A DNA stretch of 63,653 nt, the filler included, from Folioceros fuciformis (lineage: Eukaryota), in NCBI GenBank assembly GCA_049999805.1. It is 7 parts of 7 records of this genome, joined end to end, with 100 filler letters (N's around TTAATTAATTAA, not from the genome) between each part and the next. Parts side by side here need not be neighbours in the genome. Positions count along the whole stretch, not along the records: positions 1 to 16,390 come from JBNGIO010005093.1; 6 more parts are not named here. One strand, given 5' to 3'. Shown here piece after piece: positions 871 through 33,047 of the stretch. The position numbers were made by a program, and so were the translations under genes. How positions within the stretch are numbered: the stretch's first letter is position 1; each line of letters starts with the position of its first letter. Below the pieces are notes generated by a model. It searched no databases and had not been told where the DNA came from. It worked only from the letters and a program-made list of their open reading frames with translations.

Positions 871-3456
871 TTAGGCGGGCAGGCACAGCCTTCTTGGCAT
901 TGCTCGCACACATGTATTTGTAGCGAATCCAAACATGAAGAGAATGTCCATTTTCCCAAAGCCGGAATCCAGAGCTGCTCCGTAACACAAGTCGTTGTTT
1001 TGTAAGGCTCCTATCGCAAGGAGTTCCCTTTGCGGGGTTTCAATGATGCAGTGACCATCCCCGAAGCATACGTAACAGCCTGATTCATCTACCTTTCTAA
1101 CTGAGAAGAGGTTCTTTGTAAGCCCTGGTACATGAAGAACGCCTGATATGTGCAAGGTAGATGTTGTTTTAAGGTTAATTTTGAGGGACCCATGACCCTG
1201 TATTTTGTGTCTGGAGTCATCTCCTAGACTAACATACTGAGGTGGCTGTGTAGGGTTGATCTCTATGAAGTATTCTAGGTTTTGTGTCATGTGTTGGGAG
1301 GCACCCGAGTCAATGTACCATGTGTGATGTCCCTGAGCTGCAAGGCAGGATGCCACATAAGCTGTTGGATTAGAGGAACTTGGTTGATCTAGCTAATCTT
1401 GGGATGATTGAGGTGTGTGCGTTAAATATGCTCTTGTATGTCTTTCCATTGTGAGGGCGAGTTGTCCTATCTGCTCACGTCAACGTTGTGGGTTGTTTGC
1501 AGTTTGTCGTTTCCGACATTCCTCATAGGTATGTCCTGGAATTTTACAGTACCCGCAGACGGGTTTCCAAGGGGGATTGTAGTAACCTCTTCCTCTACTA
1601 TGGTAAGTACCCTGATAATTGCCCGGTCCACAAGGATGTGGTTGTCCTCGCATGCCACCGCCCCTACCCCTGAATCTTTTGCCTGTAAAATAGGCGTTGG
1701 AGGAAGATTCTCTAGCATAAAAAGTGTTGGATAATTTGCGTCTTGCTTCTTCTATTAGCATAGAGCTAATAACTTTGTTGACTATCAGGGGAGTTACTCC
1801 TTGAAGGGACTACACAACAGTAACCTAGGACTTGGGCAGCGTGGAAAGGAGTAGGGCTGCAGAAAGATCTTTGGTAAGGGCGAATCCAATGGCCTTGAAT
1901 TTTGTTGACCAGCTACGGAAGTGCATAGTATGTTGGTCGACGAGATCTCCCTCTTGCGTGCGCAGGCCGAAGAAGTGTGTACGGTGTGCATAATATTATA
2001 TCGTGCAATTGCTGCTAGGCAGCTGCTGCAGTGTTTGTGTTTTTGATTTGTTGGACATTCCCATGACGCATAGCCTGGATGATCACGTTGTGTGCTTGTT
2101 GATTGGCGTCTTCCCAGTCCTCCTTTTCTTTTGCTGTTCCGTTGGTTGGGTAGGCTATGGGAACAGGGGGGTTGCCTATGCCTTCTACGTAGCCCCATAA
2201 TTTTCTCTCCTTTAGGATATTTTTATCCTAAATTTTCATGTTGAAAAGTTTTGCTACTGACCATCGAACTTGTCTTCTTTGGACAGGCTGGTGTGGGAGG
2301 ACATGGTGTTGGTGGCGTTCTAAACGCTGAAGACAATGTTTCTAATTATACTAGATGCATCTAACTGCATGGTGAGGACAACTTTGTAAGTTCGTTGAGG
2401 GAATTTTATGTGGGAATGTGATTCGTCTAGACTGTTGATTTTCTGTATTATTGAGGTTTGTGTTTCTTGAATTTCCTTCGCAGCTGGAGCATGAAGAGGT
2501 TGTGATGTCTACATAGAGAACTGAGGTGAGAGATTACTTTCTCCTTGACATCTGTGAGTGAGATGGGAGCGATGATGTCTAGACATGTGGTAAATTCCCT
2601 TTTCATTGTTGATGGAAGAGGTATTCTACTTGGATGTATGAGAAGTCATAATCATGATGTTCTAGGTGACCTCTGAGGAGTAGTTCTTTGCCAATTAAAA
2701 AGTAGGACACCGCAGGTCCTGAACTAGCCATAATGACAAAGGTTTTCCTGTGCCTCTTTGAGGTATCGAATCTCTCTATTGGACCTTTGCCATTGAAGGT
2801 ATTTGGCTTTTTTTTTCTGCCTTCTTTGCAAGGCGCCTTAGCCTCTGATCACCAGGCACTAGGTCGCAATTGGCGGGGCATTATGGTGTGGCTGGTATGG
2901 ATGAGATCAATGACCAGAGGGAAGGGATCCTGCTCTGATACCATGTAATTATCAGGATTAGATTTGCATTGAAACGTGATCGTTAAGTACAAAGGTGAAA
3001 CGCTGCGAGCGTACTCATAACTGTTCGCTCAAGTTCGACTTTTGGTATCTAGTCTGTAGACCGAAACGTGCCCTAACCTAGGCAGTAGATATGCATTAAT
3101 AACAGGCCCACCTTTGATACCCTACAGTCCATGTTTGGGCAATTGGCATGTGCACCTCCATGCTCTTCTGAAAGGCACCAGTGCTGTGCACCAGCCTTTT
3201 TCAAGCATAGCAAAGTAACATGGTCAGCGAAAATGAGGCCCTCCGACTCTAGTCGTCCACACACAACTAGCGCTTCCTATTCGAGCAAGCCCGTGCTTGG
3301 CATACCTAGTCTCATAGCATTCCAGATGGAATATTCCACTCGCACCTCAAATGGACACCGAGATCAATGTACTCGTCGCTTCACAAATAAATCCTTCTTA
3401 CAGACGGACACTTTCGAAACTTTGCCTCTAATTACAAAATAGGTGTAGATGTGACA
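871..3456 (-). mobile_element. Degenerate, 3'-truncated Ty1/copia element (5' LTR, PBS, gag, protease)
   Basis: tRNA-iMet PBS TGGTATCAGAGC on the minus strand at 2932-2943; gag zinc knuckle CGYCKIPGHTYEEC; protease WYIDSGASQHMT and LHVPGLTKNLFSV; many stops and frameshifts. The LTR outer end (~3456) is approximate. Confidence 0.85.
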
Positions 3457-3610
3457 ATAATGAGCATCTTGGCATTAATGTATGTATTATTTGTTGTAGG
3501 TTTCAAAACATTCGCTCATGACCATGGTGGTGTAGGGTTATTAAAGCCCAATGTGTTTAGACTAATGTGTTTAGTCTAAGATTAGTGTCTAGTTAAGTAT
3601 CATTAGTTTA

Positions 3611-3876
3611 TGATGAGAATCAATAGCTCTTAGTTAGAAGAGAAACAATGGAATGAATTAATTAATGAGTAAAGTACAAGCCTTTAAATAGGCTGGGTGG
3701 TAGGGTGGTTACAACAATATGTTGTTGTAACCATAAGTGGTTGCAACCATAAGTTGTTGCAACTATAAGTTGTTGTAACTAACATAACAACTAACTACCT
3801 AAAGCCCTAGCTCTTAAATAATGTTTGAGTAATTAGGCCCTAATGAATAGTGCCCTAAGCTAGAGTTATTTCATCA
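3611..3876 (-). repeat. 3' LTR of copia element
   Basis: Near-identical to 11517-11782; TGATGAGAAT...ATTTCATCA termini; internal CATAAGTTGTTGCAAC-like short repeats. Confidence 0.95.
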
Positions 3877-4888
3877 CTCCCACTCACTATGAATGTAGGG
3901 GTGAATTTTAGCTTCAAAATGAGGTCTAAAACATAGATAGACTCCCACTTAATCAAAAGTTATTTACTTAAGAAAAATGCTAAAAGCTTAAGATGCTTGA
4001 TGGTTAAGTTAGCTTGAAATAAAAACTTGATAAATCCTCGAAAGTTGGCGGTTGAAACGGCCATAGAAGAAATAGTCTAAAAGCAATAACACCTGGCATT
4101 AATAAATATGCCACAAAATAACAATAAAAATAAGGCCTTAAATGGTCCATAAGCCTATAAACAGGTCCATAAATAAGCCAAAATTGAGCCTATATGAGCC
4201 ATTAAAAGATAAATAGGCCTGACCCAAAAACAGGGCCAAAATAAAGCCTAAAATAGGAAAACCTATAAACGGGCTATAAGGTATAAGCCCATTTTGGGCT
4301 TATCCAGGGCATACGGTCCTGAACCGCCCGGGGCCACCTGATTGGTGGTCAGAGGGGGCAGGTACGGCCGTTAAGCCGGCCGGTTCTGCCTCCCAAATAA
4401 GCGCTCCTGCCGGGGGAAAGCCATCACTTTCGGCCCCCCCCTGCACATGGTGGCGCACAGATCGGCTGCTCGCCCCTCCGCATCGCGCGCAGCACCTGGA
4501 GCTGGGCATCCCGCTGCACCGGCATAGGCGCAAGCATCCCGCGTTCCGCGCCTGCTGTCGCGCGCCGCGCCTGGTGGAGATAACCACGCGCTGCACCTGT
4601 AAACATCCCGGCGCCTCTGCGGCTATCTGCTGTCGGGGTGAGAGGTGATCTTCCCCGCGTTCTGCGCTCCTGAGGTCGCGCTCCCACTGCCACTACATAA
4701 GCTCCCATGTGTCTCGAGTTGTTGTTGCAGATTATTGTATTGCTGCAAAATTGGAGTGGAGATGACGCGCCTAATAACTGGTGAGTCCATTTTGCTTTCA
4801 ATGTGTATATCCAATTTGCATTGTCTATATCCCATTTTGTAAATTTTCATGCGGTAGTTTCCATGTCTCATGCTTGTAGGAATAATAC

Positions 4889-6090
4889 ATGCTTGATATG
4901 GTGGCAGGTCCTCGTCGTGTGGAGAAGGCCCGTGCCCCCCCACATGCTCCAAAGGACGAGGCCATAAAGAAAATGAAGAGAGCAAATCGAGTAGCAAGAA
5001 GGAGAAGAAAACTTGCCGCACGTGGAGAAAAGGATAGATTGAGCCGGGAAGCCGCCCGTGGGCGCATCTTGTGGTATAGAGATGCACTCGCACGGGGTGA
5101 AGAGATCCCGATGTCGGGCCCCGGCCGTAATATAGGAAATGATATGGAAGATCCTAATTTCTCTTGTGAATTCCTGCAAGCATGTGCCGAGGTGGCTAAA
5201 ACAGGCGGAGAAAAGGCCGATGGAGAAGATGACGTCTTGGTGGTACAAGCACTCGCCGGAAAAACCGATGTTGTCATCAAAGAAGTTGAGGGGGCTGGTA
5301 AGCCAATAAAATGCAAAATAAATTGCAATAAATAATTTGATTGCATAAAAATACTAATCATTGTTGATGTAGATAATCCAATTACCGAGGGCTCAGGAGC
5401 TATATCCTCGGAGTGTCCTGGGTATGACGACTTCAACATGGAAGAGTCGGAGGAGTCAGGGGACTCCATGAAACAGGACGAAAGCCCCCAGCAGGCCGTG
5501 TGTGAGGGCAGCCTGAGCTGGAGAGCATATGCTAGCGCCGACATAAAAGAAGTAGGAGCTAGGGAAAAGAAAAGTGAGTAGGTATAAAAACCTATAGTTA
5601 GGGGCTAGTAACTAGCTGTAACCTATGCTAAGGATAAACTTATCTACATCTATTTTGCAGATGGGGAGAAAGGGGTAGGCACAAGCTATGTGAGGTTTGC
5701 CCTACCTCTACAACCTATAACAAAAGCTAAAAGGAATGTGCCAAACTCCTATTTGCCAGCTGGAAACCTATGCAGAGCAACCTACATGGTGCTTCCGGGA
5801 GGAAAGGACGACCACGAAGTCCCCATGGAATATATATGTGAGAAAGGAGGGATAAAAATGATGTGGTTAGGTGCATATCCATGTGAAGAGTACGGAGGAC
5901 ACACCAAGCACTTGTATAGTAAGTGACCTAACTTCTGAATGACTAACTTGACATCATTTTTCTTTCTGTAACCCATGGAGTGTTTGTAGGATCCTTTTGG
6001 GCATTAGAGAGAGAGGATAAGGAGTACAGTGATGATTACTTGGAAATAGAAGAGGAAATAAACCTGCTAGATAAACTTTGTGGATTGTAA
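4889..6090 (+). CDS. Antisense four-exon accessory gene inside the copia element, join(4889..5297,5373..5573,5661..5918,5990..6090), 322 aa, unknown function
   Basis: Three GT-AG introns (GTAAGC..TGTAG 75 nt; GTGAGT..TTTGCAG 87 nt; GTAAGT..TTTGTAG 71 nt with GACTAAC branch site). All are phase 1 and join into a stop-free ORF ending TAA at 6088-6090. The N-terminus is basic (KKMKRANRVARRRRK). Confidence 0.75.
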
Positions 6091-6107
6091 AAATTTGAAA
6101 ATACCCA

Positions 6108-9100
6108 CTAGCTAGCTGGCTTAACCTCTTGTACTCCTAACATTTTCATGTGTTTTAAATGCAAATCTCTTCCTAATGACTTGGTTAAAAGGTCAGCTGG
6201 GTTGTTTTGGGTTGGAATATAATTGATATCTATTGTTTTATTTTCTAACATTTCCCGTATGTAATGATACTCGACTGCTATATGTTTAGTTCTGGAGTGG
6301 AAAACAGGGTTCCTAGCTAAGGCAATAGCACCCTGGCTATCACTGTAGAGAGGTGTAGGTCCATCTTGAGGATAATTCAACTCACTCAATGCTAACCTAC
6401 TCCAGACTATATCCTTGGAGACTGAGGTGAGGACCCTATACTCTGACTCTGTACTAGACAAAGCAATGGTTGGTTGTTTCTTGACCATGAAATGGGTGCA
6501 CCTCCTAGCAGTAATGCGTAGCCGGATACAGATTTGCGGCTATCAGGATCTCCAGCATAGTCGGCATCAGCATAAGCTGTTAATTGTAACTTAGATATGC
6601 CGGGAACATGTTTATACATCAATCCTGTGTGCATAGTCCCTTTTAAATACCTGAATATTCTCTTGACACATTGCCAATGTTGTCTTCCAGGATTCTCCAA
6701 AAATTGTGAGACTGCACTAACTTCAAAAGATATATCGGGTCTTGTGAAGTTACTTAAATATATTAAGGTGCCAACAGCATGTCTGTATGGTACTGCTGAC
6801 ATTTCTGCTTTCTCTGCATCTGTTTTAGGGCTCATATCTACTGTAAGCCTTGTGCCACTTGGAAATGGTGTGGCTGCTGGCTTAGCATCTTCTAGTCCAA
6901 ACTTCTTTAAGCTTTCTTTTATATATTTTGTTTGAACCAAGGAAATGGATTTATTACCTCTATCTCTTATAATGTTAACGCCAAGGGCATAACTAAGGTC
7001 TCCCAGGTCTGTCATTTCATAATGACTTCTCAACCATGCTTTAATTTCAGCTAGATGAGAGAGTGAAGATGAAGCTAAAAATAAGTCATCCACATATAGT
7101 AAGAGGTAAATTATGTACTGTTTAGTCTTCAGGATATACATGCTAGCATCTGCTTTGCTTTGAACAAAACCATATTTTGTAAGCTTGTCATGTATATCAT
7201 TATTCCATTCCTTGCCAGATTGTTTAAGGCCATAAATGCCTTTAATGAGCCTGCATACATGGTCTTCTTTACCTTTGACTTCATAGCCTTCAGGTTGTCT
7301 CATGTATATTTCTTCTTGGATTCGGCCATGCAGATAGGCAGTTTTGACGTCCATCATGTGAAGATGTAAGTCATGTTGAGCGGACAAGGCTATTATAATT
7401 CTGAGGGAGGCAAACTTTGCTAGTGGTGCATAGGTAGCCCAAGGTATGTAATCTAAACCCGGTATCTGGGTAAACCCTCTGGCTACCAGCCTTGCCTTAT
7501 ATCGCTCAATAGAACCATCACCCTTACGTTTGATTTTAAATACCCATTTACTTCCCACTATTTTTCTCCCTTTGGGTGGTGTAACTAATTCCCATGTGGA
7601 GTTTTCTACTAAAGAGTTGTACTCTGAATCTACTGCTACCTTCCACAGGTCTTTCTCAGAAGAGGAAAATGCTTGTTTCAAGGTTAGCGGTTCCTCTGGA
7701 TCAACCGTGGCTTTGTAAACAGCTTGATAATAAGGTGTGAGAGGAGAAATGGGGTCATCAGAAGTGACAAGATATCCCAAAGGTGGTTCCTTCCATCCAG
7801 CAGGTCCTGCAACAGCGGGTCTAGTCCTAAGATTGTACCTTGGTGCAGGTTGTTGAATGTGTTCCTCAATGTCGACCACTTGTTGAGCTGGTTCCTGTGC
7901 AGGTAACGCAGGCTCTTGTTCTGGCTCGTCGTCGAGTGCATCCACATGCTCGTCGACGGGCTCATCCTCGAAAGGAATACGATCCTCCTCACGAATTTCA
8001 ACATCATAGTCGATTTCAGCATCAGTTAAATGTTGAGGTTCTTCTAAATCAGGATCTGGTGTAGTTGGTCGTCTTGGAATATATTCTAACTCCTCCTCCT
8101 CCTCCTCCTCCTCCTCCTGCAACAGAGGTTCAACCATGGGAGCTGGCTGCGGAGGGAGTGAATGTATGATGACAGAATCATCGTCATCAAAAATGGAAGG
8201 CTCCGGATGCGCAGAGGAAGGGGCATCAGGAGTAATGGGAGCAGATGCCCCCATAATAGGAGAAAGAATATGAGATTCATGAAAGGTCACGCTCCTGGCA
8301 TAAATGAGCTTTCGGGTAGATGGGTCAAATAACTTGTAACCCTTAATGCCTTCTGTGTAGCCAATAAAGGTATATTTGGCTGCCTTGGGATCCAGCTTCT
8401 TGCGTTGTACTTTGGGGATGAACACATAAGTAGGGGATCCGAAGATTCGTAAATGATCAATAGAAGGTTTTCTCCCAGTAAAAGCTTCATATGGAGTCAT
8501 GCCTTGGACTGCGGAAGTCAGCAGTCTATTAAGGAGATATGTTGATGTCAATATAGCTTCAGCCCAATAACTTTTAGATAATTTAGCTTGGGTGAGCAAA
8601 CAGCCTGTGATCTCCTGGAGGCGTAAATTTTTGTTTTTTGCTACGCCATTTTGCTGAGGTGTGTGTACCACACTAAGTTGTTGCGCTATACCTTCAGCGC
8701 GGCAAAATTCAGCAAATTCATTGGAAGTGAACTCTCCTCCATTATCGGAGCGAAGAGTTTTAAGCTTCCTGTCGGTGAGTCTCTCTGCCCACATCATATA
8801 TTCTTTGAAGAAAGAAAAGGCCTGACTCTTATGGCGGAGGATGTAGGTGAGGACGAACCGAGAATAATCATCAGTGAAGGTTAAAAAATATCTACAACCA
8901 CTAAATGAAGGTGCAGATATCGGACCACAAATGTCTGTGTGAACCAACTCTAAGGGTGCCTTAGCCCTCTGAGGGGATGGATTGTGGAATGGAGCTTGAT
9001 GACGTTTGGTTATGACGCAAGCTTCACACCAGGGGAGAGGTTCAAGTTTAGGAATACAGGGAGTTCTATACAGGTTTCCCTTAGACATTTGGATAAGCTT

Positions 9101-10702
9101 TTGGCTGTTCGGATGACCTAATCGACAGTGCCAAAGAATGGTACTTGAAGAGTTGGAATGGGAGGCTACATTGATGAGGTGTAACGGACCCACTTGGACT
9201 GAGAGTTTATAGAGTCCATCTTCTAGTGTGCCAGAGCAGATTGTGTGATACTTATTAGTATGATAGTAAAGGAGACACAAATCGGCTTCAAGGATAATTT
9301 GCATGTTATGTTCTTGACATAAACTAGCGGCTGACACTAGATTCTTGCACATGGAGGGTACATAAAGGACATGGGAGAGAGTAAGAACCTGCCCGGTGGA
9401 GCACTTTAATGCCACGGAACCTACACCAAATATGGTGAGGTTATGGTCGTCGCCTAGGAGCACTGTTTGTTGTCCTTTTGATGGCGAATACGACTCAAAA
9501 AAGTTAAGGTCGTGACATATATGAGATGTTGCACCACTGTCTAAATACCAATTTTGGTTTGATGGCTTGGAACTTGCCAAGCAGACAGTAAGTGCTGATG
9601 GAGTTGCCGTGGAGGGCTTCTTCTTAACGGCAACATGTGCTCCTGTGGTGACCTCCTTCTTTGGCTCACCATTTTTCTTCTTCCAACAATCCTTCTCCAT
9701 ATGGTTGGTCATCTTGCACCAATTGCAGGTAACTCCAGCCTTCTTCATGCCTTTTGAAGGTTTAAATGAAGAAGTGGATGGTCCTTGAAAATTTTGAGTA
9801 GGAGTCGGTCTAGGAGTGAAGTTTCCGCGGCCTCGGCCACGTCCTCTTCCTCTGCCGCGTCCTGTGTACATTACTTGATGGCGGGCTGATCGGGGATTTT
9901 CATTTCGACGGCTTGCGTCCTCCTCAATAAGTGCTCCTATTAATTCACTTACGCTGATATCCAGCGTTGTGGAGCCCGTTAATTTCTTCTGTTTTTGTGC
10001 AGCTCTAAGGACCGCATTTTGCGTTGTCACAAAGGGCCTATAGGAGGGCGGCAAGCTGGCGAGGAGAGCAATAAAAGTTTGTTTCTCTGTAAGTTTTTCT
10101 TCAGAGGATGCATTGAAATTATTCTTTGCAATACGGAAGTTGGTCAAGTGTTGTTGTAAGGAATCAGTCTCCTTCATCCTTATAGTATATAAGTGACGTG
10201 TGGCAGTCAATAAGCTCATTCCATCTTTGGAGGCATAATGCTGAGCTAACTTCTCCCACATCTCGGCTGCGGTGTTTGCGTCTGCAACTTGGAGTACCAT
10301 CGCTTCGGTAAGTCCGTTCATTAAAACGTCTCGGGCTCTCCGATCTTTGGTTTCCCATTCATCTATAGCATCGGAGTCCCAAGTGGAACATTCTTCCGTA
10401 CCGTTGACAATATTCCATAAGTCGCGGCTGCGCAGGACACCTTGGGCACGATTTTGCCATACATCGTACCCCTTGCCGTTGAATCTATCTTTGTCTTTAA
10501 AGTTGTCACCTTGAATCACTTGAGGCTTGGATTCATAACGCTTTTTAGCTTTCTCCTTTTCTTCCCTTTTAAATTGCTCCCATTCATCTCGCCATATAGA
10601 TTGTTGTTCTTCAAGCCATTTGGTCTTTTGGGCAGCCAAAAATTTTGCTCTGGCTGCACCGAAGTCATCAATATCCACGTCGAGATCGTCCGACCCCACC
10701 AT
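6108..10702 (-). CDS. Copia gag-pol polyprotein with one frameshift near 6485 in RNase H
   Basis: CNWCKMTNHMEKDC knuckle, WYLDSGATSH protease, WHCRLGH...CEAC integrase zinc finger, LRSDNGGEF, LYVDD reverse transcriptase, YADADYAG and KKQPTIALSSTESEY RNase H (ORFs 6407-10702 and 6108-6488). Confidence 0.95.
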
Positions 10703-10713
10703 TGCAAGTAATT

Positions 10714-11316
10714 TTAATGATGCAGGTTATGCCGTGGTTGACACGCCGTCTTCTTGCATTGTTTTGCAGGAAAGAGGCGCGAGCAGGCACAGCATTTCTT
10801 CAAATTATGAATTTCTTCATCATCATCAGAATCTGCAGACTTACAATCAAGTGAGAAGAGGCCTTGTGAAAGGTCTCGGTCAACAAGTCTATCTGAGATA
10901 ATATTAACTTGTTGTGTATTGTAAGTCAATTTCTCATTGATAGCAGAGTGATTTATTCTAAGTTCTACTCTTATGGAATCTAGAGATTGCTGCAGATGAT
11001 CTACATTAGGAGCGAAGATACTAGCCTTATTTTTTACGTACTTAGAGATGGCAGACTCTATAGCACTATATTGATAAAGGCTAAATGTAGAAAGGAGAGC
11101 TTTACGAGCATAAATGATATCTTGTACTCTATCTCCTGACTTAGACAAAAGGGCTTCAATGAGACAACATACTTGTGCCTCTAAAACATCAATCTGAGGA
11201 GAATTGAGGTCAAACTCCTCCTGAATGTAAGAAGATTTGATTTGATGTTGTTTCTTCTTCTTTGAAGCCTTGATTTTCCTCCTAAATTCTTGTCTGCTTG
11301 GATTAAAGGAATCCAT
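10714..11316 (-). CDS. Extra 200-aa ORF between PBS and gag of the copia element, unknown function
   Basis: Uninterrupted ATG ORF ending 11 nt before the gag ATG; basic N-terminus (RRKIKASKKKK), helical middle, Cys-rich tail. Confidence 0.55.
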   Translation of the reverse strand: MDSFNPSRQEFRRKIKASKKKKQHQIKSSYIQEEFDLNSPQIDVLEAQVCCLIEALLSKSGDRVQDIIYARKALLSTFSLYQYSAIESAISKYVKNKASIFAPNVDHLQQSLDSIRVELRINHSAINEKLTYNTQQVNIISDRLVDRDLSQGLFSLDCKSADSDDDEEIHNLKKCCACSRLFPAKQCKKTACQPRHNLHH

Positions 11317-11820
11317 GGAGAGCAGACAAGAAATTGATGCACAATGTGTGCATCATTGTGCGCTGGTCACCAGATGATTGCTGCTGAAGGCGAAATCTCC
11401 ACGCTGCATTATCTTCACTTGAATTACTACAAACGCAAAAGCATTGGAGAGAAAATTGCCTAGAGCATAAGGAAGCAGAGGTGCTCAAGCACAAAGAGCT
11501 AAATGCTCTGATACCATGATGAGAATCAATAGCTCTTAGATAGAAGAGAAACAATGGAATGAATTAATTAATGAGTAAAGTACAAGCCTTTAAATAGGCT
11601 GGGTGGTAGGGTGGTTACAACAATATGTTGTTGTAACCATAAGTGGTTGCAACCATAAGTTGTTGCAACTATAAGTTGTTGTAACTAACATAACAACTAA
11701 CTACCTAAAGCCCTAGCTCTTAAATAATGTTTGAGTAATTAGGCCCTAATGAATAGTGCCCTAAGCTAGAGTTATTTCATCACTAAGTTCACTAATAACT
11801 AAAACTAGTCTAGTATGAAC

Positions 11821-14068
11821 CTAACTGGGATAACTAACACCACATGAGTTTAGCTCATATAGAGCTCGATAACTCAACATAGATCTCAAGGTCCTGAACT
11901 TGATTATATGGTGCTCAACGGAGTCATGCTCCCTCATTTTGCAATTGTAGAAATCTCGAGTTGCACTCACAAGCGAGGATCCATTTACTACTTGGTAGAC
12001 TTGTGTAAGTGCATCCCAGACAGCCTTTGTGGACTCAGCCTCACGTGTGTGGTGCATCATTGTGCCATCGAGTGCAGACTGTATGACAGCTAGTGCATGA
12101 AGATCAAGTTTGGCCCAAGCATCTCTATCAACTTGAGGAGCTGTGGGGGCAGGTTTAGGGACTGTCTTAGAAACAACACCCCAGAGATCATTTTCTTTCA
12201 AGATAGTTTGGACTCTAAGTGCCCAGATATCGAACTGTGTGCCTGAAAATCTATCACGTTCTTTAAAATCTATCTTGAGGTTGTGTACAGTAGTGTTATT
12301 AGTAACTGTACCTCCCTACTGTTGAGTACCCATTATTCCAACTATGTGTGCTGCTAAGGCTGCCCTAGTGGCTTGTGCTATTGACCCAACTTGAGCAACG
12401 TGTTGTAATTGTGCAGCGTGCAAGTTGGATATACCACCAGTGGATGAACTGCCTTGAGAAGGGCCTGAAAATGACTGGTCGTTGTTAATGGACAGAGGAT
12501 CAACAACAAGATGTCCCCCTCTGCCGACACCCCTTCCAGCAGGTCTGCCACGAGGGCCTCTTGGTTTGCTGTTTCCTCGCGACCTTCCACCGTGTGTCAT
12601 ATACAGCAAAGCTTGGAGAGGGAGATCAGCCTCCGCTTCAAAGGCGTGCATTTGCTCCATATGTTGTGGAAAAAAAATTCTTGCATCACATGAAACATTT
12701 TCTCCCAGTCTGACTGTTGTGTGTTTGTAGAGATCTGAACAGGTGCAGGTTTCTCTGGAACTCATGAAGATGTTTCTTTAGGAGATGCTGTTTCGTGCAA
12801 GGACAAGTTGCTGATCTTTAACAAGTTGTTCACTTGATGGGCAAGGTGGGTGACGTGCCTATTATTAAGCATAATTAATGTTGAGATTAATTAGTGCTAA
12901 TCCAACTTATTGAGTTTGTACTAATTAGTGGTAAGAGTGATTAAGGTTATGATTAATATATATATATAGCTTATTAGACTTTGCTATGTTAGGCAAAAAA
13001 AGTATTGTAGGGTTTGGGGTCATTTATCCCATATTGGGCACGAAATGAGAGTGCCACCCATAGGTCCATAAAAGAAGGGATGAACCCACTTAGTATTTGT
13101 AGTCTAACTCCCTCTTCACTTGTATTGTGTTGTTTTTGTAATTCTCCTTTTTATTTGAGTTTAAGAGCCTTGTTATAGTGCTCTTAGTTTTGGGATTCTG
13201 CATCTTGCTTCAACTATCTTGTTTTAACCTCCTTTGAGCATGGTGGGGGTGACATCTCAACACCTATTTGTACTCGCTACCTTAATGGAAAGATCAGCTA
13301 CTCGTTTCTTTGTGTCAAATGCAAGTGTCTTGACAGAGTGGTGTATGTCTTCTATCAAAAAATCGGAAGTACCGGGATTTGACTCAAGATTGCTAATGCA
13401 GGGGCTGCAAGTGAGACTCTGAGGACGAAATAACCATGCTGCCTCGACAGGGATCGTGCGTGCCTGACGCGAAGGTTTTCTAGCCAGGTGACTTAAGCAA
13501 TCAAGGTTGTCGCAGCGATTAGGAGGTAATCCTGCTGGCTCATCGCGTCTACCAGCAATAGAATCTGTCCAGCGCAGGCGATTCCTCTGGCCTCTTGGTC
13601 TTGGCATGCTGCGGGGACTACGTGTAGTAGTGCGCTACAGCATTTGCAAGAAATTGATTCGCCATGCGTCGAAACCTGGTGAGGGCTGCCTTCAATGCTG
13701 AGATCGCCGCACAGAACTGGTAATGTGTGAGGTTCTTGATGCACTGCTTGCTGCCACAAATTGCGCAGAAGAGTGCGCATGAGGTTGGCGGCACGGCGAG
13801 ATCTGTCATGGCTCTGATACCATAAAGATCGAAGGAGGATCGCGAGAGAGGCGAGAGAGAGATTCAAGAAGAGAGTAGTTGATAGCTTAGGCCGTGTGGC
13901 CTTAAAAGGTGTGCAGGGCAACCGTTGGTGGTGTCCCGTGAAGTGTGACGGTTGATACTTAGAGTCACGACCCTAATACTTTGCCTTTCTATATCTAGCG
14001 TTTCATATCGGGATTATCTCTATTTAATTAATGCTTGGCTACTTAATAATAAATGTACTTTATCTTTA
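11821..14068 (-). mobile_element. 5' part of a second copia element (LTR 13823-14068, PBS, degenerate leader ORF, truncated gag)
   Basis: iMet PBS 13811-13822; gag FKERDRFSGTQFDIWALRVQTILKENDLWGVV...KMREHDSVEHHIIKFRTL with an in-frame stop at 12316; LTR bounded by TAAAGAT...ATCTTTA. Confidence 0.85.
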
Positions 14069-16390
14069 GGCCACTTGACAATGGGATTTAGTGTGCCCTT
14101 GCTCACCACATGTGGAGCAAAACAAGTTGGCACAGCCGCTGGTTGCAGCCCTCCTCCTCTCATGTTCCTTGATAGCATTGAGATGAAACTTCTCAAAATT
14201 ACTCATCATCTCCTCCATCTTGGACTCCTTCTGCTGCATCTTTTTGGCTGCAGCCTTAGCTTCCTTTTTGACCTGCTCCACCTCCTTATTGGCACTAGCC
14301 ACCTCTTGCTTGGGCTTGGCCCGATCCTTGGCTCCCTTTGTCTCCTTCTTCCTCTTGGCACCCTATGTCCACTGCTTCTTCCTCCTCTTTTTGGAAGTCT
14401 CATCCTCTGAGGACTCCTCTCCTATCTTTTCCTCCTCTGAAGAAGAGGAACTCCCCAATGCTTAACCCTCTGAAGAGTCGCTCCCCTTGGAGGAGTCTTC
14501 ATCCGAGGAGGAGGAATCCTTCTTTTTCTTCCCCTTGCTAGACTTCTTCTTCTTATCCTTCTCCTTCCCCTTCTTCGACTTCCTTTTGCCCCAAGGATGG
14601 GATTCTTTGTAGTTGAGGGCTGCCTTGATGGCCTTGTCCTTCTCCCCAAACAACTTCACATGACCCCCTATCTTGGAACCTAGGCCACCAGTAAACCACT
14701 ACATGGCCTGCAAGTCAGAATGGGGCCCACCATGGTCACGCAAGTTATGAAACCTCTCCACATAGGCTTGCAAGGTTTGCTTCCTTCTCCTCCTCAAAGA
14801 CTCCAACTTGGACAACACATAGCCCTCCAGATCTATCCCCATAAACATTTCACAAAAGGTCTTCTTCAGCACATCAAAGGTTGTTGGTAGAGTGCCAAAC
14901 TTGAGGTACTCCCTCCGGTACCACTTGGCAAGCCCTCCACAAAGAACTCCATAAAACAGCTGGATGCACATCTGCAGATTCCTAATTGGCAATGGTTAGT
15001 TGTTGAAAATGCTCCACAAACTCATCCGGATCTTCAGACCCCTTCTTCTCTCCATACAAAGGGCACGGCTGCTTGGTGGACATTGCAACAGGAGCTAGGG
15101 CTGCCATGGTGATTGCACCCACAACCACAATTGCACATCCGGCAGCTGGAGTTGTGCTAATGTGGCTGGGCACTGTAGCACTTGCACTCACAATCACCTG
15201 CACCAAGCTAGGACGGGGGTTAAGAGGCAGAATTGGATTAGGTTGCCCTGGCCTAGACTCCCCTTTAACAACAGAAAGTTGGGGATCTTGCTCCAACAAG
15301 ATCAAACTCCCTAAGATCAGCATATTGCTTGCCCCGTGCCTCCTTCCAGCCGGTGTGTTGCCTGGTTGTGCCCTCCTTAGCTCCCTTTCTACTGCTCTTT
15401 GCCCACGCTTTGATGCCTCCTTGCTTGAGACCTCCCTTCACGGCTGGAGTCGAAATCTTCAGCTCCTACGCGGGGCATCCATTAGCCTTTCTAGCCTCAC
15501 CTTATACCTCCCCCTATCCAAGTTAGTTCCCTCACCTAATATGCTGTACACACTATCTAGGTTAAATCCCCTTAAGCCTTGATAGCAATGACACTTCCCG
15601 GCAACGGCGTCAAAATGTGGAGTGACCTTCGACCACCAATGTGTCACAAAGAGGTCCACTTTAACCCTCTTATCGTTTGCAGTCCTGAGATTCGTTCCCA
15701 AGGGAGTGATCTTGTGCCAAGGCAAATAAACTAAGCTATTCTAACCTGATCCCACTTACCAATCCCCTACTCAACCTGACAGTAGCTACAGTAGTTAGGT
15801 CTAACTTCCTAACTTTATCCCTATTGCATGCAAAAGCTACCCTAGCAGCTAAAAAAGAAACCCCGATCTCATAGGTCCAAGTCCTCAACTTCAACCTCTC
15901 ACTTCAGCATCCTAAAATTTGCACATAGCACTCCAACTCATGAAATTAGCAGCACAACAGCTTCCCCCACCTGCAGCCCTAGGGCAAAGATGTGAGGTCT
16001 TGGCACCGGATAGCCCCCTTAGCTCACAGCCCTCCAACGTTTACCTTGGAAACCTTACCCAAGGACATCAAGGCACCTCTCAGCCAGCATACAAGAAGGG
16101 TCAACAGCTGCGGATCTGGCTACACAGATCTTGGCAAACCAGGGATCCACCACGTCCCCCTTAGTGGGAAGGAGATCAAGGCCCAAGGTGCACTCATACC
16201 AAATCAGCATCCTAATCCGGTAGCCTGCACACAAGGAACAAGGGGACTCATACCAAAGATTGCCCCCTCCCAAATGACAGGCTGGCCCCTTATACTATCT
16301 TGGCCAAGAACTACCCATCACCACCTACCCGGGTTAGCATCCCTTCACACGAGAAAATATATTTCACACCCCCGCCAAGAACCTAACCCT
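14069..16390 (-). mobile_element. Non-chromovirus Ty3/gypsy (Athila/Tat-like) relic: 5' LTR part, PBS and degenerate gag
   Basis: PBS TGACGCCGTTGCCGGGAA (tRNA-Asp-type) on the minus strand at 15595-15612; retrotransposon gag signatures SEDPDEFVEHF, FDVLKKTFCEMF, QTLQAYVERFHNL; knuckle CSTCGEQGHTKSHC, cut off by the copia LTR. Confidence 0.8.
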
Positions 16391-16490
16391 NNNNNNNNNN
16401 NNNNNNNNNNNNNNNNNNNNNNNNNNNNNNNNNNTTAATTAATTAANNNNNNNNNNNNNNNNNNNNNNNNNNNNNNNNNNNNNNNNNNNN
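16391..16490. other. Artificial contig spacer (N-run with TTAATTAATTAA); same spacer at 23710-23809, 32948-33047, 44971-45070, 53352-53451, 61631-61730
   Basis: Identical 100-nt N pads carrying a six-frame stop linker. Confidence 0.95.
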
Positions 16491-16959
16491 TAGGGAGCCT
16501 TGTGAGGAAAAGGTATCGAGTGTAGGGAGGTAGAAATCGGTAGGGGAGGTACTAGGGCCTTTCCAAGTGAAGGAATGGTGCCTACCTAATGACGGGACGT
16601 GTTGCACGATTGGTAGGAACGTGATTGGAAGGTAGAAATCGGTAGGGGAGGTATTGGGGCCCTTCCAAATGAAGGAATGGTGCCTATCTATTGATGGGAC
16701 GTGTGGCCAGATTGGTAGGTACGTGGTTGGGAGAGTTGACTAGTGTAGGGGAGCGATAGACGTAGCTGACCAGGCTCAGAGGGGAGCGATCCCGGGGAAA
16801 CCTACAACGACCGTGGGATTGATGTGGCCACGATACATGTGAGCGGGTGCCTGGTAGGGATACCATGCTCGCTTGCCCACATCCTTATTACAACAGCTGA
16901 AGTTTGGACTCAGTTGAAGGACATGTATTAGGTTCAAAATATTCTTACACTTGTACATG

Positions 16960-18810
16960 CAAGAAATGAGTTTTATGGCCTTAAGCTGCGTGATGGAGAT
17001 CCAGTGGGACCACATATTGTGAAGTTTCGCCGTCTGCAATCTCAATTAGCTGCTCTTGGATGCACAATGGTAGAAGTGGATGCAATTGCTCAACTGCCCT
17101 CAAGCTTACTAGCTTCTTATCCAAACTTAGTGTCAAACCATAATACCTCCATTCGACCTTCTTATGTTGTTGGGAGTGCTGTTAAGCCTTCCCTGATTAT
17201 GTTGAATGACTTGATTGGGGCTTTCCTGCAAGCGGAACAAAGCCGCCAGAAGGTAGGGCCTTCGAGCCGCTAGAAGTCAGGGCCTTCGTCTCGCCTCCAA
17301 GAAGAGAAGGTGCTTTACGTTGCAAAAGGGAAAGGACCAGGATGCAATAGTAAGAATAAGAAAGGGGGAATTTCACCATGCCAGTCTTCTTCTCCTACAG
17401 TGAAATGTTAAGGCACCTGCAATTGGTGCCAAATCCCAGGGCACTGGGAACGTGATTGTAGAAAGAAGAAAGCATGTGAACCTAAGAAGGAGGCTCGCCT
17501 TGTAGCTCATGTTACTGCCAAGGGAGCTTCTTTTGGACAACAGCAGCATAAAAATAGTAGTATAGTCCTTACTGTTTGTCTCACTTCTAGTAAAGAGAGC
17601 TCTTCGATGTGGTTTGTGGACTATGGGGTCAATTCAGTCATCAGACACATTTACAACTGTCTATGTTGGTGATTCACGAGGTGTTGAGGTCAAAGGTAGT
17701 GGTCGGGCTAGCATACCTTTGTTGGATTGCACTTCTTTGTAGCTTTTTGATGTGTTGTTGGTCCTGTCCATGAGTAAAAATCTGCTATCAGTAAGGGCAA
17801 TTACTTCCACTAATCACTATGGTTTTCGCTTTGAGTACAAGCATTGCTACATTTACAGAATCCAAGAACCATGGGAATATGTTGCCAAAGCTACCTTGGA
17901 GGATGACTTGTACACCTTAGTTGGATACCACTTCTTCTCACAGTGTTCAGGCTTTGGTTACTTCTTATCCTCTTCAGGCTAGCTTGTAGCATGCACGCTA
18001 AGGTCATGTTATTAAATCAAAACTTTATTTGATGTCTCATTCAAGCTGCTATCGTGAGAAGCTGCCTCCTTGTTTTAAGCACCTGGCCTCCCATGGTGTG
18101 TGCATTCTATCAAAACAAAAGGAGCTTCCCTTTAAAAATCAAATGGCTACATGAGCTAAAGCAATACTTGAGTTGATACATGCAGATCTTGCAAGAAAAT
18201 TTCTAGTTAAATCTCTTGGTGGGTCGGAGTATTATCTCTCTTACAGTTGATTATTCTCGTTATACATGGGCTTTTCCTCTCCAGCTGAAGAGTGATGTCT
18301 TAGATCATATCTCCGCTTGGATTCCCATGGTTCAAAGACATAGGAAATTTGGTTAAGTGTTTTTGCATGAACAATGGTGGCAAATTCACTGGTCCCAGAT
18401 TTGATGATCTGTTTTAGCTTTATAACATCATTCGATAGCTCTCTATTCCCTACACATAGCAACAAAATGGCGTGGCTGAGAGGAAGAATTAGACCTTGAT
18501 GGGGATGACACGAAGTATATTGGCTTGGGCAGGCCTTCTAAAGTCTTTCTGCGCAGAAGGTGTGGTTGCAGCCACATACATTTTGAATAGGCTTGTGACC
18601 TCAGCTCTCCTTGGTAGGACACCTTATGAGGCTTTTTGGGGCCGCAAGCCAAGTCTTCTTCATCTTAGGGCTTTTGGGTCTCCTGCCTTTGCATTCATTC
18701 CTGAAGCCAAGAGGGGGAAGTTAGATCATAGGTCTAAGCCTTTTATTTTTCTTGGCTACTCAGAAGAAACCAAAGCTTGCAAGTTGTTTGATCCTCACAC
18801 TCATAAACTC
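16960..18810 (+). mobile_element. Heavily decayed copia gag-PR-integrase fragment
   Basis: HIVKFRRLQSQL, CNWCQIPGHWERDC, SKNLLSV, YILNRL...TPYEAFWGRKPSLLHLRAFGSPAF, with many stops. Confidence 0.85.
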
Positions 18811-21800
18811 ATGGGTTGGGGAGTGAAGAAAGAAAGTAGGAAGGAAAAGGCAATTGTGATGGCAAACCCTTCATACGACACCTTCAACAATGAGCATTTT
18901 GTGAGCTCATGATATTCTTCTTAAGAAACAGAGTGTACCCCTCACTTGACATGATGGTTGTACTAGTATCTAGGAAGAAAGGGATTTCAAGAGGTTAAGA
19001 GCATATGCCAAAAAATCTACCCTAAAAGCAACTATTTTGAACAGTTTAGGGTTTTTTGTGTAAATATAAGTGTATTTAATTTTAAAATTTATTCAATTAT
19101 AATGTTTTCAAGCAACAAGGAGCTACTTAAGATTTTTGTAGAACATGCTCAAATTTTGATGTGCAAACAATTCCTTCATTCATAAGTCTTAGATTGCTCA
19201 TGCTCTTAGATTTCTATTGAAGTTATCTCTCACTCTTTGAGACAAAATATGTTAAATTATCGTATGCTCTCAATCCACTTGCTATGCTGAAAATTTTTTG
19301 GTATCATCTACACTTGAAGCTGGGCTTAAGTAACACATTTCAAGATATTGCAAGATGTCCTCACTACATGTTTATAGTTTATATCACAAGAAGAAATATG
19401 AGCTCTAAGGAAGATGAGCTCATATTTGTACCACACAAGTGCGTTATAAGGGCTGAAAACAATAAAAATAACCTTAAAAATACCCAATTTTACCAAAAAA
19501 AAGAGATAAAAAACTAGAATTTTTTTGAGGAAATAATATGCACTTATGCTCATAAATGGGATTTTGTTTTAAACATTTTGGCTAGTGCAATTATCTTTTA
19601 GCGTGTACTTGGATGCACCAATGGGTTGATAGTGCACACTTACACACAACAGTGGGCTCTTGCTGTGTACTCAAGTGCGCTAGCAATTTGGTTAACAACC
19701 TCTCAAACAATAGAAGAGAAAAAAGAACATTAAGAATCGAATCCTTGGCTCTTCATTCAATTTTTTTGTGGATACACTAAAGCTCACTAATGTCCTTCAT
19801 ATGGAAACCTAAAGACTTTATTGTAAAAGAGAGATGCAAGTTCCATCTACCCCGTGACAAGGCGAACAACCCACAATGGGGAAAAGCTGAGACTGGGGGC
19901 CTAACCCCCTCGTCCGCCTAGCCTGTAACTCCCTATGGCCCCTAAGATATCACATTCGAGTATAAGGTATGGTCTACTTACCAGTGGGGCCGTTGAAGCC
20001 ACATCCGGCATGCTTGATGACCTTCATATCACTCATGCACTTATATAAACCTTGTTTTTGAAAAATAAAAGTGGAACATTCATGAAAAAAGGCATACCAT
20101 GATAAGCTTTAGGGTAAAATATCATTAGAAATTGGTGATGCAAACTAGTGAAGTGATGCAGACTTGTGAGCTATGTAATGAAGGCTGACCTAAAATATAG
20201 TTTTTTTGCCAAATACATAATATCCTAAAGTTATTGCAAATTGGAAGCTCTAGATTTGTTCATCCCTATTGATCACTCAATGTTCATACAATGTGTAGTG
20301 TTTGGTATTTTCTATTATTAAAAAGAGATGAAAAGTCCCATCTATTCCAAAGATTAGAGGAACAACTCGAGCAAGGTCAAAGGGCCAAAAGGGGTAATAG
20401 CTCCTTCGAACATCATTCTCAAAGACTACCTATTGCTCCCAAAATGTCATGATGTGGAATAACAAAAGGCCTACCTATTACCGATGCCGAAGAAACCTCT
20501 TGACTTGTGCTTGTTGCTATTCTAAAAACCGAGTAGGCCAATTCTCTTCTTTGCAAAGCAATGGATACGCGTTGTCGAAGGAAGGGTTTTATCACAAAGG
20601 AAAGAAGGAGGATACCATTTCTACAGCTCAGATAAACCTTGGCGCACTCCTTGATGAACCTTGAAAAATCCTTGTCCTTAGCCCATGAGTCTCAAGAGCA
20701 AGGGAGATGAAAGTGTGCTTACCTTGCAGGGGAGAATACTTATGGATTTTGGCGCTTGCACAACCCTTTGCTGCCCATCCAGGCGGGTTAAGTGTGCCCA
20801 TCTAGGGGGATGATGATGTGCTTGCAAATCAAGTAGTGTTTGCAGCCAAGGACACCAACATTGATGTGAATCTTGTCTCTTGAAACCAATAGAAGACATT
20901 ATGAAGAACATACACAAAGATGTAAAATAATAAGAATATGTTTAAAATGTATTAAGATGTATTGTTGGAATATTCACTAAAATCCCTTCCTTCCTAAATT
21001 TTGTGTGTTCATATTAAAGTCCACATGGGTTGATGATGGTGTTGATCAAGAACTTTGAGAAAGAGACTAGGCGGGAGATGCATACTTTAGACAAAGAGGA
21101 ACAATGTTTGCAGCATTACTTTGTGGGAGAAACATGTTATATTTATATTAGCATCAAAATTATTTGTGGGAAAAACATGTTATATTAGCATCAAAATTAA
21201 CATGCGATATGTAGAATACATTCCACATGGTACCCACAAGCATAAAGTTCTTCTAGATTCATGGAAGAGCTATCTTTAGAGCCCTACGTAGGTGGGCCAA
21301 CACATATTAGAAGGCTTGATAGCATATATACTTAAGAAGATAATGAAAAGAGTTTATGGGTAGGGAATGTAAACAAGCTTTAGAGTTAGTAAATAGTAAA
21401 CTACATAGAAGGGATGTTATTTCACAACTGTACTAGCTACCATGGGATTCTTGGTGCAACATTGATTCATGGTGATCACCACACATGTACAAGCATAAAG
21501 AACAACCATGGTGTAGAGTTTATTGAGCTCAAACCTAATAGTATAGATTTCATCTTTTAAGAAGAGATTGCTTTTTTGGCAATTTTGTGCCATTCTTTTA
21601 ACAATATTATGTTGTTCTATGTTGTTCTTCAAAATTCATAATCCAAAATTATGTTGCAAACAAACAAAACATGTATACCCCACTTGCGCTAGAAGCTTCT
21701 AGGGCTTTGAGTAAATACCTTGATAAATATATCAAGCCATGTGCTAAAGTACATCATATATAAAGGGATGAAGGGAAGCATCTTCTTCATGATCTCATTA

Positions 21801-23809
21801 TATTCTTTGGGAGGTGTGTGTTTGTTGTCATTAATAGGGCCATTTATGTCCCATTCTTTTGATAATACTTGTATCATTGTATATTTATCCACAAAAAGAC
21901 TTCTTTTTCTTGCTTGCTCTAGAAACCTGTCGTGCTTCGGTTCCTATTTCATGATGTTCTTTGGTATTTGGTGTTGGTTGTGATTAATAGGGTGATTTCT
22001 CTCTCATTCTTTTAGCAATACATTTGCTGTTTACATTGTTCTCCCTCGTTCATAATTCAAGATTATGCCACAAAAAAAAAAAAAAACCTTTTCACCTCAC
22101 TTGTTGTAGAAATGTATAGCAGCGCTTTAAGAAAAGACTGTAATAAATATATCAAGCCATGTATCAAAGTGCATGATGTATAATGGCAGGAGGGAAACCA
22201 CCCCTTTCATATTTTTCATGATGTTCCTCATATGTCATGGTATGGATTAGGAAAGCCGCATACTTACTACCACAATTGAAGATAATCCATCTCCATAAGG
22301 ATAAAAAGGTTGAGTTTTTCTTGAAGAGTTGGCACAAGAGAATATAATAAATCAACTCCATCCAAGACCAAAGGTGGAAGAGCTTGACATAGTCGATGGA
22401 TATCCCGTCCTAGAATTGACTATGATAAGTCCATATGTTTTGGTAAAACGTGTTTAGATAAAAAACATATACAAATAATAAATGTGCGAGTCAATGAATA
22501 TTCTTTGTCACAATTATAACTACTAATTTAGCTTAGCTTTGGAATACTAAGATGAACTCTTATGAAAATACCAAGATATCAACCTATGTTATATGTGTGA
22601 GAGAGGAACTATACCATGAATAATAAGAAAAAGAAAGCAAGAATAACAAAATTTGTAACTAATATTTCAAAACATAACTCATTTTGATTTTTGAAGAAAT
22701 CAATCAATACTTTTTGAAAAAAAATTATAATCTTGAAATTTTCATTGGAAATGGTGCATGTTTTCCAATATTGGTTCTACTCTCTTTTCTTTTTCACTTT
22801 TCATATAATTTCTGAAGTGTGTAAAAAGCAAACTATCAAATTAATGATAAGGGCACTTTGAAACTCATGTATGTTATAACTTGAATTTCATGTTTATTAT
22901 TATTATTATTAAATTCAAGTCTCTCTATTATCATTCTTGTATCAATATTGGTTGTGGATTGCACTGTGGTACGGTTTTTTCTTTTTCCTTTTTCTATTTT
23001 CTATTTTTCCTCAAAATTATTTATAAAAATATTAGTTTTTTTCTAAAAAATATTATTTTTTCTTTAAAATAGTAAAATGTTTGAGATTTTGACTTTGAGA
23101 TTACTTCTTAAGAGTGTTATTTTGGTGAAATTATGGTGACTAATCCAAGTTTGGATACATGAGATGCATACTTCTCACCCATATCTACATTGCTTTGTGA
23201 AACTTGTGATTATTATGGTCTGCATTAAACGACAACCCTTAAACTTGTGATGATTATTATGGTTTGCATTTAGATGAGGATATTCTTCTTTGTTTAGTAC
23301 ATACAGACCTCCAACAACAAACCATATTGGGGAAGGAAAAAAGGTTGGAAAAGGCACTAAAAAATATAGTGCCTTTTCCCTAGTTCAGATAACTAAGTTA
23401 TATGTCTTTGTAAACCCTAGTTATAAGTTCTTTTTACTTTTTATTTTGAATTTTTTTATCAACGCATCACATCTACGTCCCCATTTAAAGTGGGGATAAC
23501 CATGTTTGGAAATTTGCTCGATTTTGTCTTAAATAAATTATTACAATATAAATATTTTTATATTATTTAATCTAGTATAATATATTTAGTTTATTTAAAT
23601 ATCATATTAGATGCCTTTGGCTCTAATCATGTTGTTTCTTCCTTCTTTGAGGAAAATGGGATTTTCATCTATTTTTCAATAAAAAAAACTTATATGATAA
23701 CCACAAAGTNNNNNNNNNNNNNNNNNNNNNNNNNNNNNNNNNNNNNNNNNNNNTTAATTAATTAANNNNNNNNNNNNNNNNNNNNNNNNNNNNNNNNNNN
23801 NNNNNNNNN

Positions 23810-32929: not shown

Positions 32930-33047
32930 GAATCACCTAATGCCTATNNNNNNNNNNNNNNNNNNNNNNNNNNNNNNNNNNNNNNNNNNNNTTAATTAAT
33001 TAANNNNNNNNNNNNNNNNNNNNNNNNNNNNNNNNNNNNNNNNNNNN

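Follow-up and report, generated by a model that had tools for sequence, protein, structure and literature searches.

The analysed stretch of DNA, called the window below, comprises 63,653 nucleotides (nt), filler included, in seven joined parts of the Folioceros fuciformis assembly GCA_049999805.1. Its minus strand carries an 8.2-kb Ty1/copia long terminal repeat (LTR) retrotransposon with gag-pol on the same strand, and the 2.2 kb between the pol stop and the polypurine tract (PPT) of this element hold a plus-strand frame that runs from ATG to stop over 322 codons and is split by three introns. The frame starts with the ATG at 4889, has a further in-frame ATG at 4898 and ends at a single stop (6088-6090), which 17 nt separate from the pol stop (6108-6110). 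An initial annotation had described this arrangement, and the 2.2-kb stretch, the exon and intron coordinates, the three phase-1 introns, the 322-amino-acid product and the 17-nt distance between the stops were all recovered when the sequence was read again (Table 1). The frame lies opposite gag-pol and between pol and the 3' LTR, which is the place and orientation of an antisense 3' accessory open reading frame (ORF).

Coding potential and splice signals of the antisense gene

The main argument of the initial annotation, that the spliced frame is free of stops, did not survive a length control in which dynamic programming was applied to both strands of the whole window with at most three GT..AG introns of 60-150 nt. 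Per 1.5-kb neighbourhood and strand, the best ORF so obtained has a median length of 287 codons, and the candidate, with 327 codons by this search, ranks 29th of 67; its length is ordinary under free choice of introns, and ORF length alone thus proves nothing. The opposite strand at the position of the gene also has an unspliced ORF, of 259 codons.

Codon usage was scored as log-odds with a model trained on sequences of the window, namely the pol genes of three other copia elements and the ROCO-like gene. The three open stretches of the antisense gene on the plus strand score 0.125, 0.129 and 0.119, compared with a mean of 0.015 (standard deviation 0.054) for 281 control ORFs of at least 66 codons, of which only four reach 0.116; some of these four could themselves be genuine exons. 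Read in frame, pol of the element reaches 0.10-0.12, and the five minus-strand ORFs at the position of the gene score from -0.025 to 0.018. For each of the four exons, the predicted frame is the best of six with all three training sets.

The splice signals are similarly concentrated. Donors of the form GT[AG]AG occur seven times on the plus strand of 4700-6100, the window mean being 1.77 per kb and strand, and never on the minus strand, which is the sense strand of the element; this fits the earlier claim that antisense introns would survive retrotransposition. At least four strong donor-acceptor pairs (60-110 nt apart) are found in six of 624 sliding 1.4-kb windows, both strands included, and all six overlap the gene. 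The five strong plus-strand pairs correspond to the three coding introns, a possible leader intron and one extra pair within exon 3. Six in-frame stops interrupt 4889-5926, and every one of them lies in intron 1, in intron 2 or two codons past the donor of intron 3. Composition follows the same boundaries, with a GC content of 0.23-0.37 in the introns versus 0.46-0.53 in exons 1-3; intron 1, at 0.23, is flanked on either side by exons at 0.53. Because codon usage, splice signals, placement of stops and composition agree, the structure is taken to be that of a real gene rather than noise. The codon usage and splice-pair density of the antisense gene are beyond chance, and the antisense frame quite probably is, or recently was, a real coding gene.

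The encoded protein

The spliced product would have 322 residues and a mass of approximately 36 kDa. Its net charge is +15 over residues 1-70 and -20 over residues 71-204; residues 205-290 include nine aromatic residues, three cysteines and three histidines, and an acidic tail follows. The residue charges thus confirm the basic N-terminus, acidic middle and aromatic C-terminal part of the initial annotation. AlphaFold2, run on single sequences, models a helix at residues 22-68 of exon 1, with a predicted local distance difference test (pLDDT) score of about 80 at residues 21-40 and a mean of 57.5; the model of exon 3 contains beta strands and is not usable (mean pLDDT 46.8).

Searches for relatives of the protein were negative throughout. 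No Pfam family, PF04195 included, matched any of the four exon translations at E values up to 10, and the basic stretch, although it resembles the basic region of bZIP proteins, matched no bZIP profile at that threshold. HMMER comparison of exon 3 with 1.84 billion representative proteins returned two matches, both to multi-repeat proteins; these were judged spurious, being repeat proteins aligned in six stretches. Word-based searches found nothing for exon 1 among longer proteins and proteins of near length, nor for exon 3 among longer proteins. Sequences of the PDB gave no match to exon 3 and one match to exon 1 at E = 0.6, and the ESM Atlas gave none to either exon. Neither viral and metagenome contigs searched with exon 3 nor viral contigs searched with the reverse transcriptase (RT)-RNase H part of pol yielded a match. 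In 80 metagenome copia loci with at most 49% identity to this element in RT-RNase H, tblastn with the spliced protein found nothing below E = 7.5, and blastn with 3879-6107 found no match. Judged by its sequence, the antisense protein is an orphan without known family in the searched collections. As none of them yielded a relative, the gene is unlikely to be a captured conserved host gene; a parent gene confined to this lineage may exist outside these collections.

The copia element and the 2.2-kb stretch

The element is assigned to Ty1/copia because of the order of the Pfam domains in a 1439-residue minus-strand ORF (6407-10726): Retrotran_gag_2, Pol_BBD, gag_pre-integrs, rve, SH3_retrovirus and RVT_2, the last of which is the RT. 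The LTR ends, the primer binding site and the PPT are likewise those of such an element. The two LTRs, of 266 bp each with TG..CA ends, differ by one mismatch (position 3634), and the primer binding site, TGGTATCAGAGC, presumably matches the 3' end of plant initiator tRNA-Met.

The element is not fully intact: the pol frame is broken in RNase H, which the initial annotation had missed, and the 5-nt words that flank the element do not match, so that no target-site duplication (usually 5 bp) is seen. In a three-frame view, the RNase H tail continues in a different frame to the pol stop, the switch falling near 6480-6487, and in that frame the tail is 44-49% identical to the end of RNase H in two further copia elements of the window. 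At this break, contigs of related copies, some of them under a second species label, are not of the same length as the copy described here, and several contig joints and loose ends fall at 6448-6483. The mismatch of the flanks may stem from nesting or from recombination between copies, since gag of a different copia element adjoins the element on its right. The left flank (3531-3610) contains a 14-nt tandem repeat (3550-3579) at which many contigs of the DNA runs end or branch, which suggests a very high-copy repeat.

The leader between the primer binding site and gag, at about 800 nt, is unusually long and contains a sense ORF (10714-11352) with 200 codons from the ATG at 11316. Its end overlaps the gag-pol ORF by 13 nt in a different frame, and it may represent either an additional, 5' extra ORF or an N-terminal extension of gag in a shifted frame.

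The distance from pol to the 3' LTR was compared with that in the 80 metagenome copia loci, 27 of which are at least 7 kb long; 20 of these 27 have LTR pairs. In 17 of the 20, the 3' LTR follows the last pol match at a distance of 17-125 nt, and in the other three a second element prevented measurement. The 2.2-kb spacer is therefore unusual for copia, in agreement with the structural uniformity described for copia elements (PMC6317226; this and the other papers cited are represented by excerpts). The spacer lacks terminal inverted repeats at its bounds, and a nested DNA transposon as its source is unlikely for that reason. Scans of the window with Rfam and for tRNA genes gave no matches.

Within the spacer, the ratio of observed to expected CpG reaches 0.96 at 4411-4810 and stays at 0.84-0.96 over 4411-5210, which includes the 5' end of the gene; pol has 0.53, the window as a whole 0.55 and the LTRs 0. 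No coding signal was found in the GC-rich block at 4280-4700, where ORFs score from -0.06 to 0.01. On grounds of composition, this block may be the promoter and 5' region of the antisense gene.

Other copies and spread in the family

Contigs of four sequencing runs, which carry two species labels (organisms A and B), were compared with the element over 3400-11515. The runs listed as containing the stretch were all of DNA; one run presumed to be of RNA contributed two records, both in the left flank. Organism A has a near-identical piece over 3876-5170 (six differences) and a diverged piece over 5345-5706, from intron 1 through exon 3 (53 differences and 17 gap letters). In organism B, a piece spans 5310-5631, from intron 1 through intron 2 (18 differences and 25 gap letters), and near-identical pieces lie beside the PPT and in pol. 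The occurrence of diverged copies under two species labels points to a feature of the family rather than a one-off, and it is slightly more probable than not that the gene is shared by the family and not confined to this copy.

Interpretation and alternatives

The preferred reading, to which a probability of roughly 0.6 is assigned, is that the antisense frame is a real coding gene that belongs to the copia element. As regards the promoter, transcription, splicing, nuclear location, function and family-wide sharing of the gene, we infer the following. Transcription would start from the gene's own internal promoter in the CpG-rich block, possibly with a short exon of 5' untranslated region (UTR) and the 99-nt leader intron, and the transcript would end within the 3' end of pol, the two genes converging with 17 nt between their stops. 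The genomic RNA of the element would be the complement of the gene's pre-mRNA; its introns would thus never be presented as introns and would be copied at every round of retrotransposition. The product would have a strongly basic N-terminal helix, similar to a nuclear localization signal and able to bind nucleic acid, followed by the acidic middle and the aromatic C-terminal part with its cysteines and histidines. This layout, and the analogy with Grande gene23 and the antisense proteins of Retand, allow the tentative proposal that the protein could act in the nucleus as an accessory factor, binding nucleic acid or chromatin and influencing the element's own expression or silencing. A still more specific version is doubtful: that a copia lineage present in at least two species has acquired and retains a complete host-style gene. 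Such a gene would have a CpG-island promoter and a leader intron besides the three coding ones, would encode an orphan protein that combines a basic helix with an acidic domain, and would act for the element, for example in anti-silencing or in the steering of integration. The initial annotation had proposed an element-encoded accessory gene, with a captured host gene as one option; what stands is a coding-looking, intron-bearing gene in antisense orientation inside the LTRs, whose membership of the family is hinted at, and what has become unlikely is the capture of a conserved host gene.

Several results weigh against a functional gene of the element. Besides the unremarkable rank of the frame in the length control, the codon model was built on only about 6,000 training codons, all from this window, and both single-sequence structure models are poor. 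No exon has a relative in the searched collections that would speak for conservation of the protein. The pol frame of this copy is broken, and the copy may therefore be decaying. Contig joints that skip 3931-5264 or 5293-6480 imply copies without parts of the gene. The 17 listed variant sites in coding exons comprise six synonymous and 11 non-synonymous changes, with five of the six in exon 2 non-synonymous, and no purifying selection is visible in what is a small sample of mixed copies.

Two other explanations were considered for the antisense unit. One is that the gene is a recent passenger, namely a host gene, or the 5' part of one with its CpG-island promoter, that was captured by one or a few copies and has no role for the element; captured genes in one or a few copies have been described in plants (PMC7264820). 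The sharp difference in composition between the GC- and CpG-rich block with exon 1 and the rest of the element would be explained in this way, and so would the single long piece listed over 3876-5170 with so few differences, and perhaps the lack of a listed organism B piece over 4484-5296, where missing cover is not readable as absence. Such a passenger is nevertheless unlikely, as the frame is no truncated fragment but is complete from ATG to stop and packed against the pol stop, diverged copies of exon 2 to exon 3 exist under two species labels, and the 1.84 billion representative proteins include no host-type relative. Should sister copies prove to be without constraint, the gene would be merely a recent passenger of little consequence. 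The other explanation is that the antisense unit matters as RNA, pairing with the RNA of the element and feeding small-RNA silencing or regulation, with a frame that is incidental or decaying. Antisense transcripts of LTR elements and their possible role in double-stranded RNA have been discussed (PMC7264820, PMC12786077), and the listed variants, without clear purifying selection, fit a role as RNA; it is improbable all the same, for it leaves the codon usage and the confinement of stops to introns unexplained, all four exons are coding-like in exactly the predicted frames, and the Rfam scan was empty.

Two further explanations deny the gene altogether. Chance would require that a purine-rich stop-free stretch happened to have GT and AG dinucleotides that allow a spliced frame, and spliced ORFs of about 300 codons can indeed be drawn almost anywhere in the window. 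It is very improbable in view of three adjacent ORFs at about the 99th percentile of the control codon scores, a density of strong donor-acceptor pairs unique in the window, stops in introns only and the contrast in composition between intron 1 and its flanking exons. Alternatively, the true extra gene might be the sense ORF at 4825-5604 (minus strand), either env-like or another forward ORF as in SIRE copia elements. It is the longest unspliced ORF of the spacer, with its 259 codons from stop to stop and 239 from the ATG at 5544, and it is long enough for a cut-off of 250 codons such as that of PMC6317226. Its codon score (-0.004) is that of a control, Ser, Leu, Phe and Pro abound in its translation, which is what the complement of a purine-rich coding strand should give, and it has no Pfam match below E = 0.7. 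The sense ORF is a shadow of the plus-strand gene, and a SIRE-type gene at this place is scarcely credible; no sense-strand coding ORF was found downstream of pol.

Comparison with known systems

Plant LTR elements relatively often have an antisense ORF in the region from pol to the 3' LTR, and the examples named in the excerpt are all gypsy elements: maize Grande with gene23, rice RIRE2, Silene Retand and Phaseolus PvRetro13 (PMC7264820). Like these gypsy ORFs (aORF-3R), the gene described here lies in antisense orientation after pol in an element whose 3' internal region is long, and its product resembles no known protein. It differs from them in that its host is Ty1/copia instead of Tat/Retand gypsy, in that it is split by three, perhaps four, introns whereas the gypsy ORFs are described, as far as the excerpts go, as unspliced, and in that no sequence similarity connects it to them. 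For Grande gene23, a promoter of its own and a nuclear location of the product are described (PMC7264820), which parallels the features that the CpG-rich block and the basic N-terminus suggest here. Among recently active Retand clusters, 97% encode a TRP28 domain (PMC11963269); this domain (PF04195, Transposase_28) is the one that none of the exons matched.

The statement of the initial annotation that antisense ORFs are known mainly from Tat/Retand elements agrees with PMC7264820 and PMC11963269, but has to be qualified for copia: Neumann et al. (2019) recorded 582 Ty1/copia elements with extra ORFs of 250 codons or more, which fall into 45 similarity groups (PMC6317226). The only lineage-typical copia case named in the excerpt is the extra ORF (eORF) of SIRE (PMC6317226), which is forward, whereas the gene described here is reverse. 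Because that survey, in its excerpted form, used unspliced ORFs, a survey of its type would miss the split gene and score only the 259-codon shadow. A 2020 review asks for attention to antisense and spliced transcripts (PMC7264820), and the reverse of the logic by which the element's RNA would keep antisense introns is used in retrotransposition reporters (PMC12786077). In the literature outside subscription journals, no paper was found on an intron-containing antisense gene in a copia element. An antisense 3' accessory gene is thus a known arrangement; what is new is the copia host, the introns and the unrelated orphan protein.

HBZ of HTLV-1 is a spliced nuclear regulatory protein with a basic region that a retroelement encodes on its antisense strand. 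It is encoded by a vertebrate retrovirus, contains a bZIP domain and is transcribed from a promoter in the 3' LTR, whereas the protein described here has no bZIP match in Pfam and its putative promoter is internal. Antisense retroviral genes are mentioned in PMC7264820 and PMC11963269. The VANC anti-silencing proteins of VANDAL transposons (mentioned in PMC11728184) offer a likeness of another kind, as fast-evolving, orphan-like accessory proteins encoded by a transposon; VANDAL elements are DNA transposons, and no sequence relation was found between VANC and the protein described here.

Accessory genes of plant LTR retrotransposons are common, have been catalogued from unspliced ORFs and are almost entirely unexplained in function. 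If the preferred reading is correct, namely that the copia element carries a real antisense gene, it would show that split genes of host style can persist in retroelements over many cycles of reverse transcription, and it would suggest that ORF-based surveys under-count such cargo; at this locus nothing but the non-coding sense shadow would score. The protein, being small and tractable, would be suited to asking what antisense accessory factors do. On the more specific, doubtful version, split antisense genes could be a systematically overlooked class of retrotransposon cargo.

Features of the element and of the rest of the window

Table 1. Positions of the antisense gene, of the parts of its copia element and of other features in the window
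Feature	Position	Strand	Remarks
3' LTR	3611-3876	-	direct repeat of 11517-11782
PPT	3877-3888	-	minus-strand purine run directly upstream of the 3' LTR
AT-rich spacer	3889-4279		GC 0.34, observed/expected CpG 0.35; degenerate 20-nt and 6-nt tandem repeats at 4115-4172
GC- and CpG-rich block upstream of the gene	4280-4700	+	GC 0.66, observed/expected CpG 0.88; putative promoter and 5' region
Possible 5'-UTR (leader) intron	4781-4879	+	predicted from a strong donor-acceptor pair; 99 nt, GTGAG..TGTAG, GC 0.35
Exon 1, coding part	4889-5297	+	136 codons and 1 nt; basic N-terminus, then acidic; codon score 0.138
Intron 1	5298-5372	+	75 nt, phase 1, donor GTAAGC, acceptor TGTAG; in-frame stop at 5333
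Exon 2	5373-5573	+	acidic middle; codon score 0.116
Intron 2	5574-5660	+	87 nt, phase 1, donor GTGAGT, acceptor TGCAG; in-frame stops at 5579, 5585, 5606 and 5609
Exon 3	5661-5918	+	aromatic C-terminal region with Cys and His; codon score 0.075
Intron 3	5919-5989	+	71 nt, phase 1, donor GTAAGT, acceptor TGTAG; unspliced frame stops at 5924
Exon 4 with stop	5990-6090	+	acidic tail; codon score 0.209 over 32 codons; stop at 6088-6090
gag-pol	6108-10726	-	Pfam domains; frame broken in RNase H near 6480-6487
Sense ORF in the leader	10714-11352	-	212 codons, in the long leader between primer binding site and gag; codon score 0.077; weak Pfam matches
Primer binding site	11505-11516	-	TGGTATCAGAGC; adjoins the 5' LTR on its inner side
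5' LTR	11517-11782	-	direct repeat of 3611-3876
Three further copia elements and three fragments	28248-32514 (+), 48801-52927 (+), 62071-63485 (-), 16740-18813 (+), 11881-12270 (-), 1099-1977 (-)		
Pairs of N blocks	16391-16490, 23710-23809, 32948-33047, 44971-45070, 53352-53451, 61631-61730		

The other copia elements and fragments of the window are 28-49% identical to the polyprotein of the element that carries the antisense gene, and none of them matches the antisense protein. The six pairs of 44-N blocks, 12 nt apart within each pair, are filler between the joined parts of the window; two of the pairs follow the pol ends of other copia elements at a distance of about 430 nt.

Two other loci contain candidate genes. 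At 36083-39931 (minus strand), adjoining ORFs of 905 and 376 codons contain Roc and COR-A domains followed by a caspase domain (Peptidase_C14), which makes this a ROCO-like protein with a caspase-like end and apparently no introns. At 13493-15582, the minus-strand ORFs 14069-14362 and 14465-14698 have the top codon scores of the controls (0.173 and 0.199) and may be exons of an unannotated gene.

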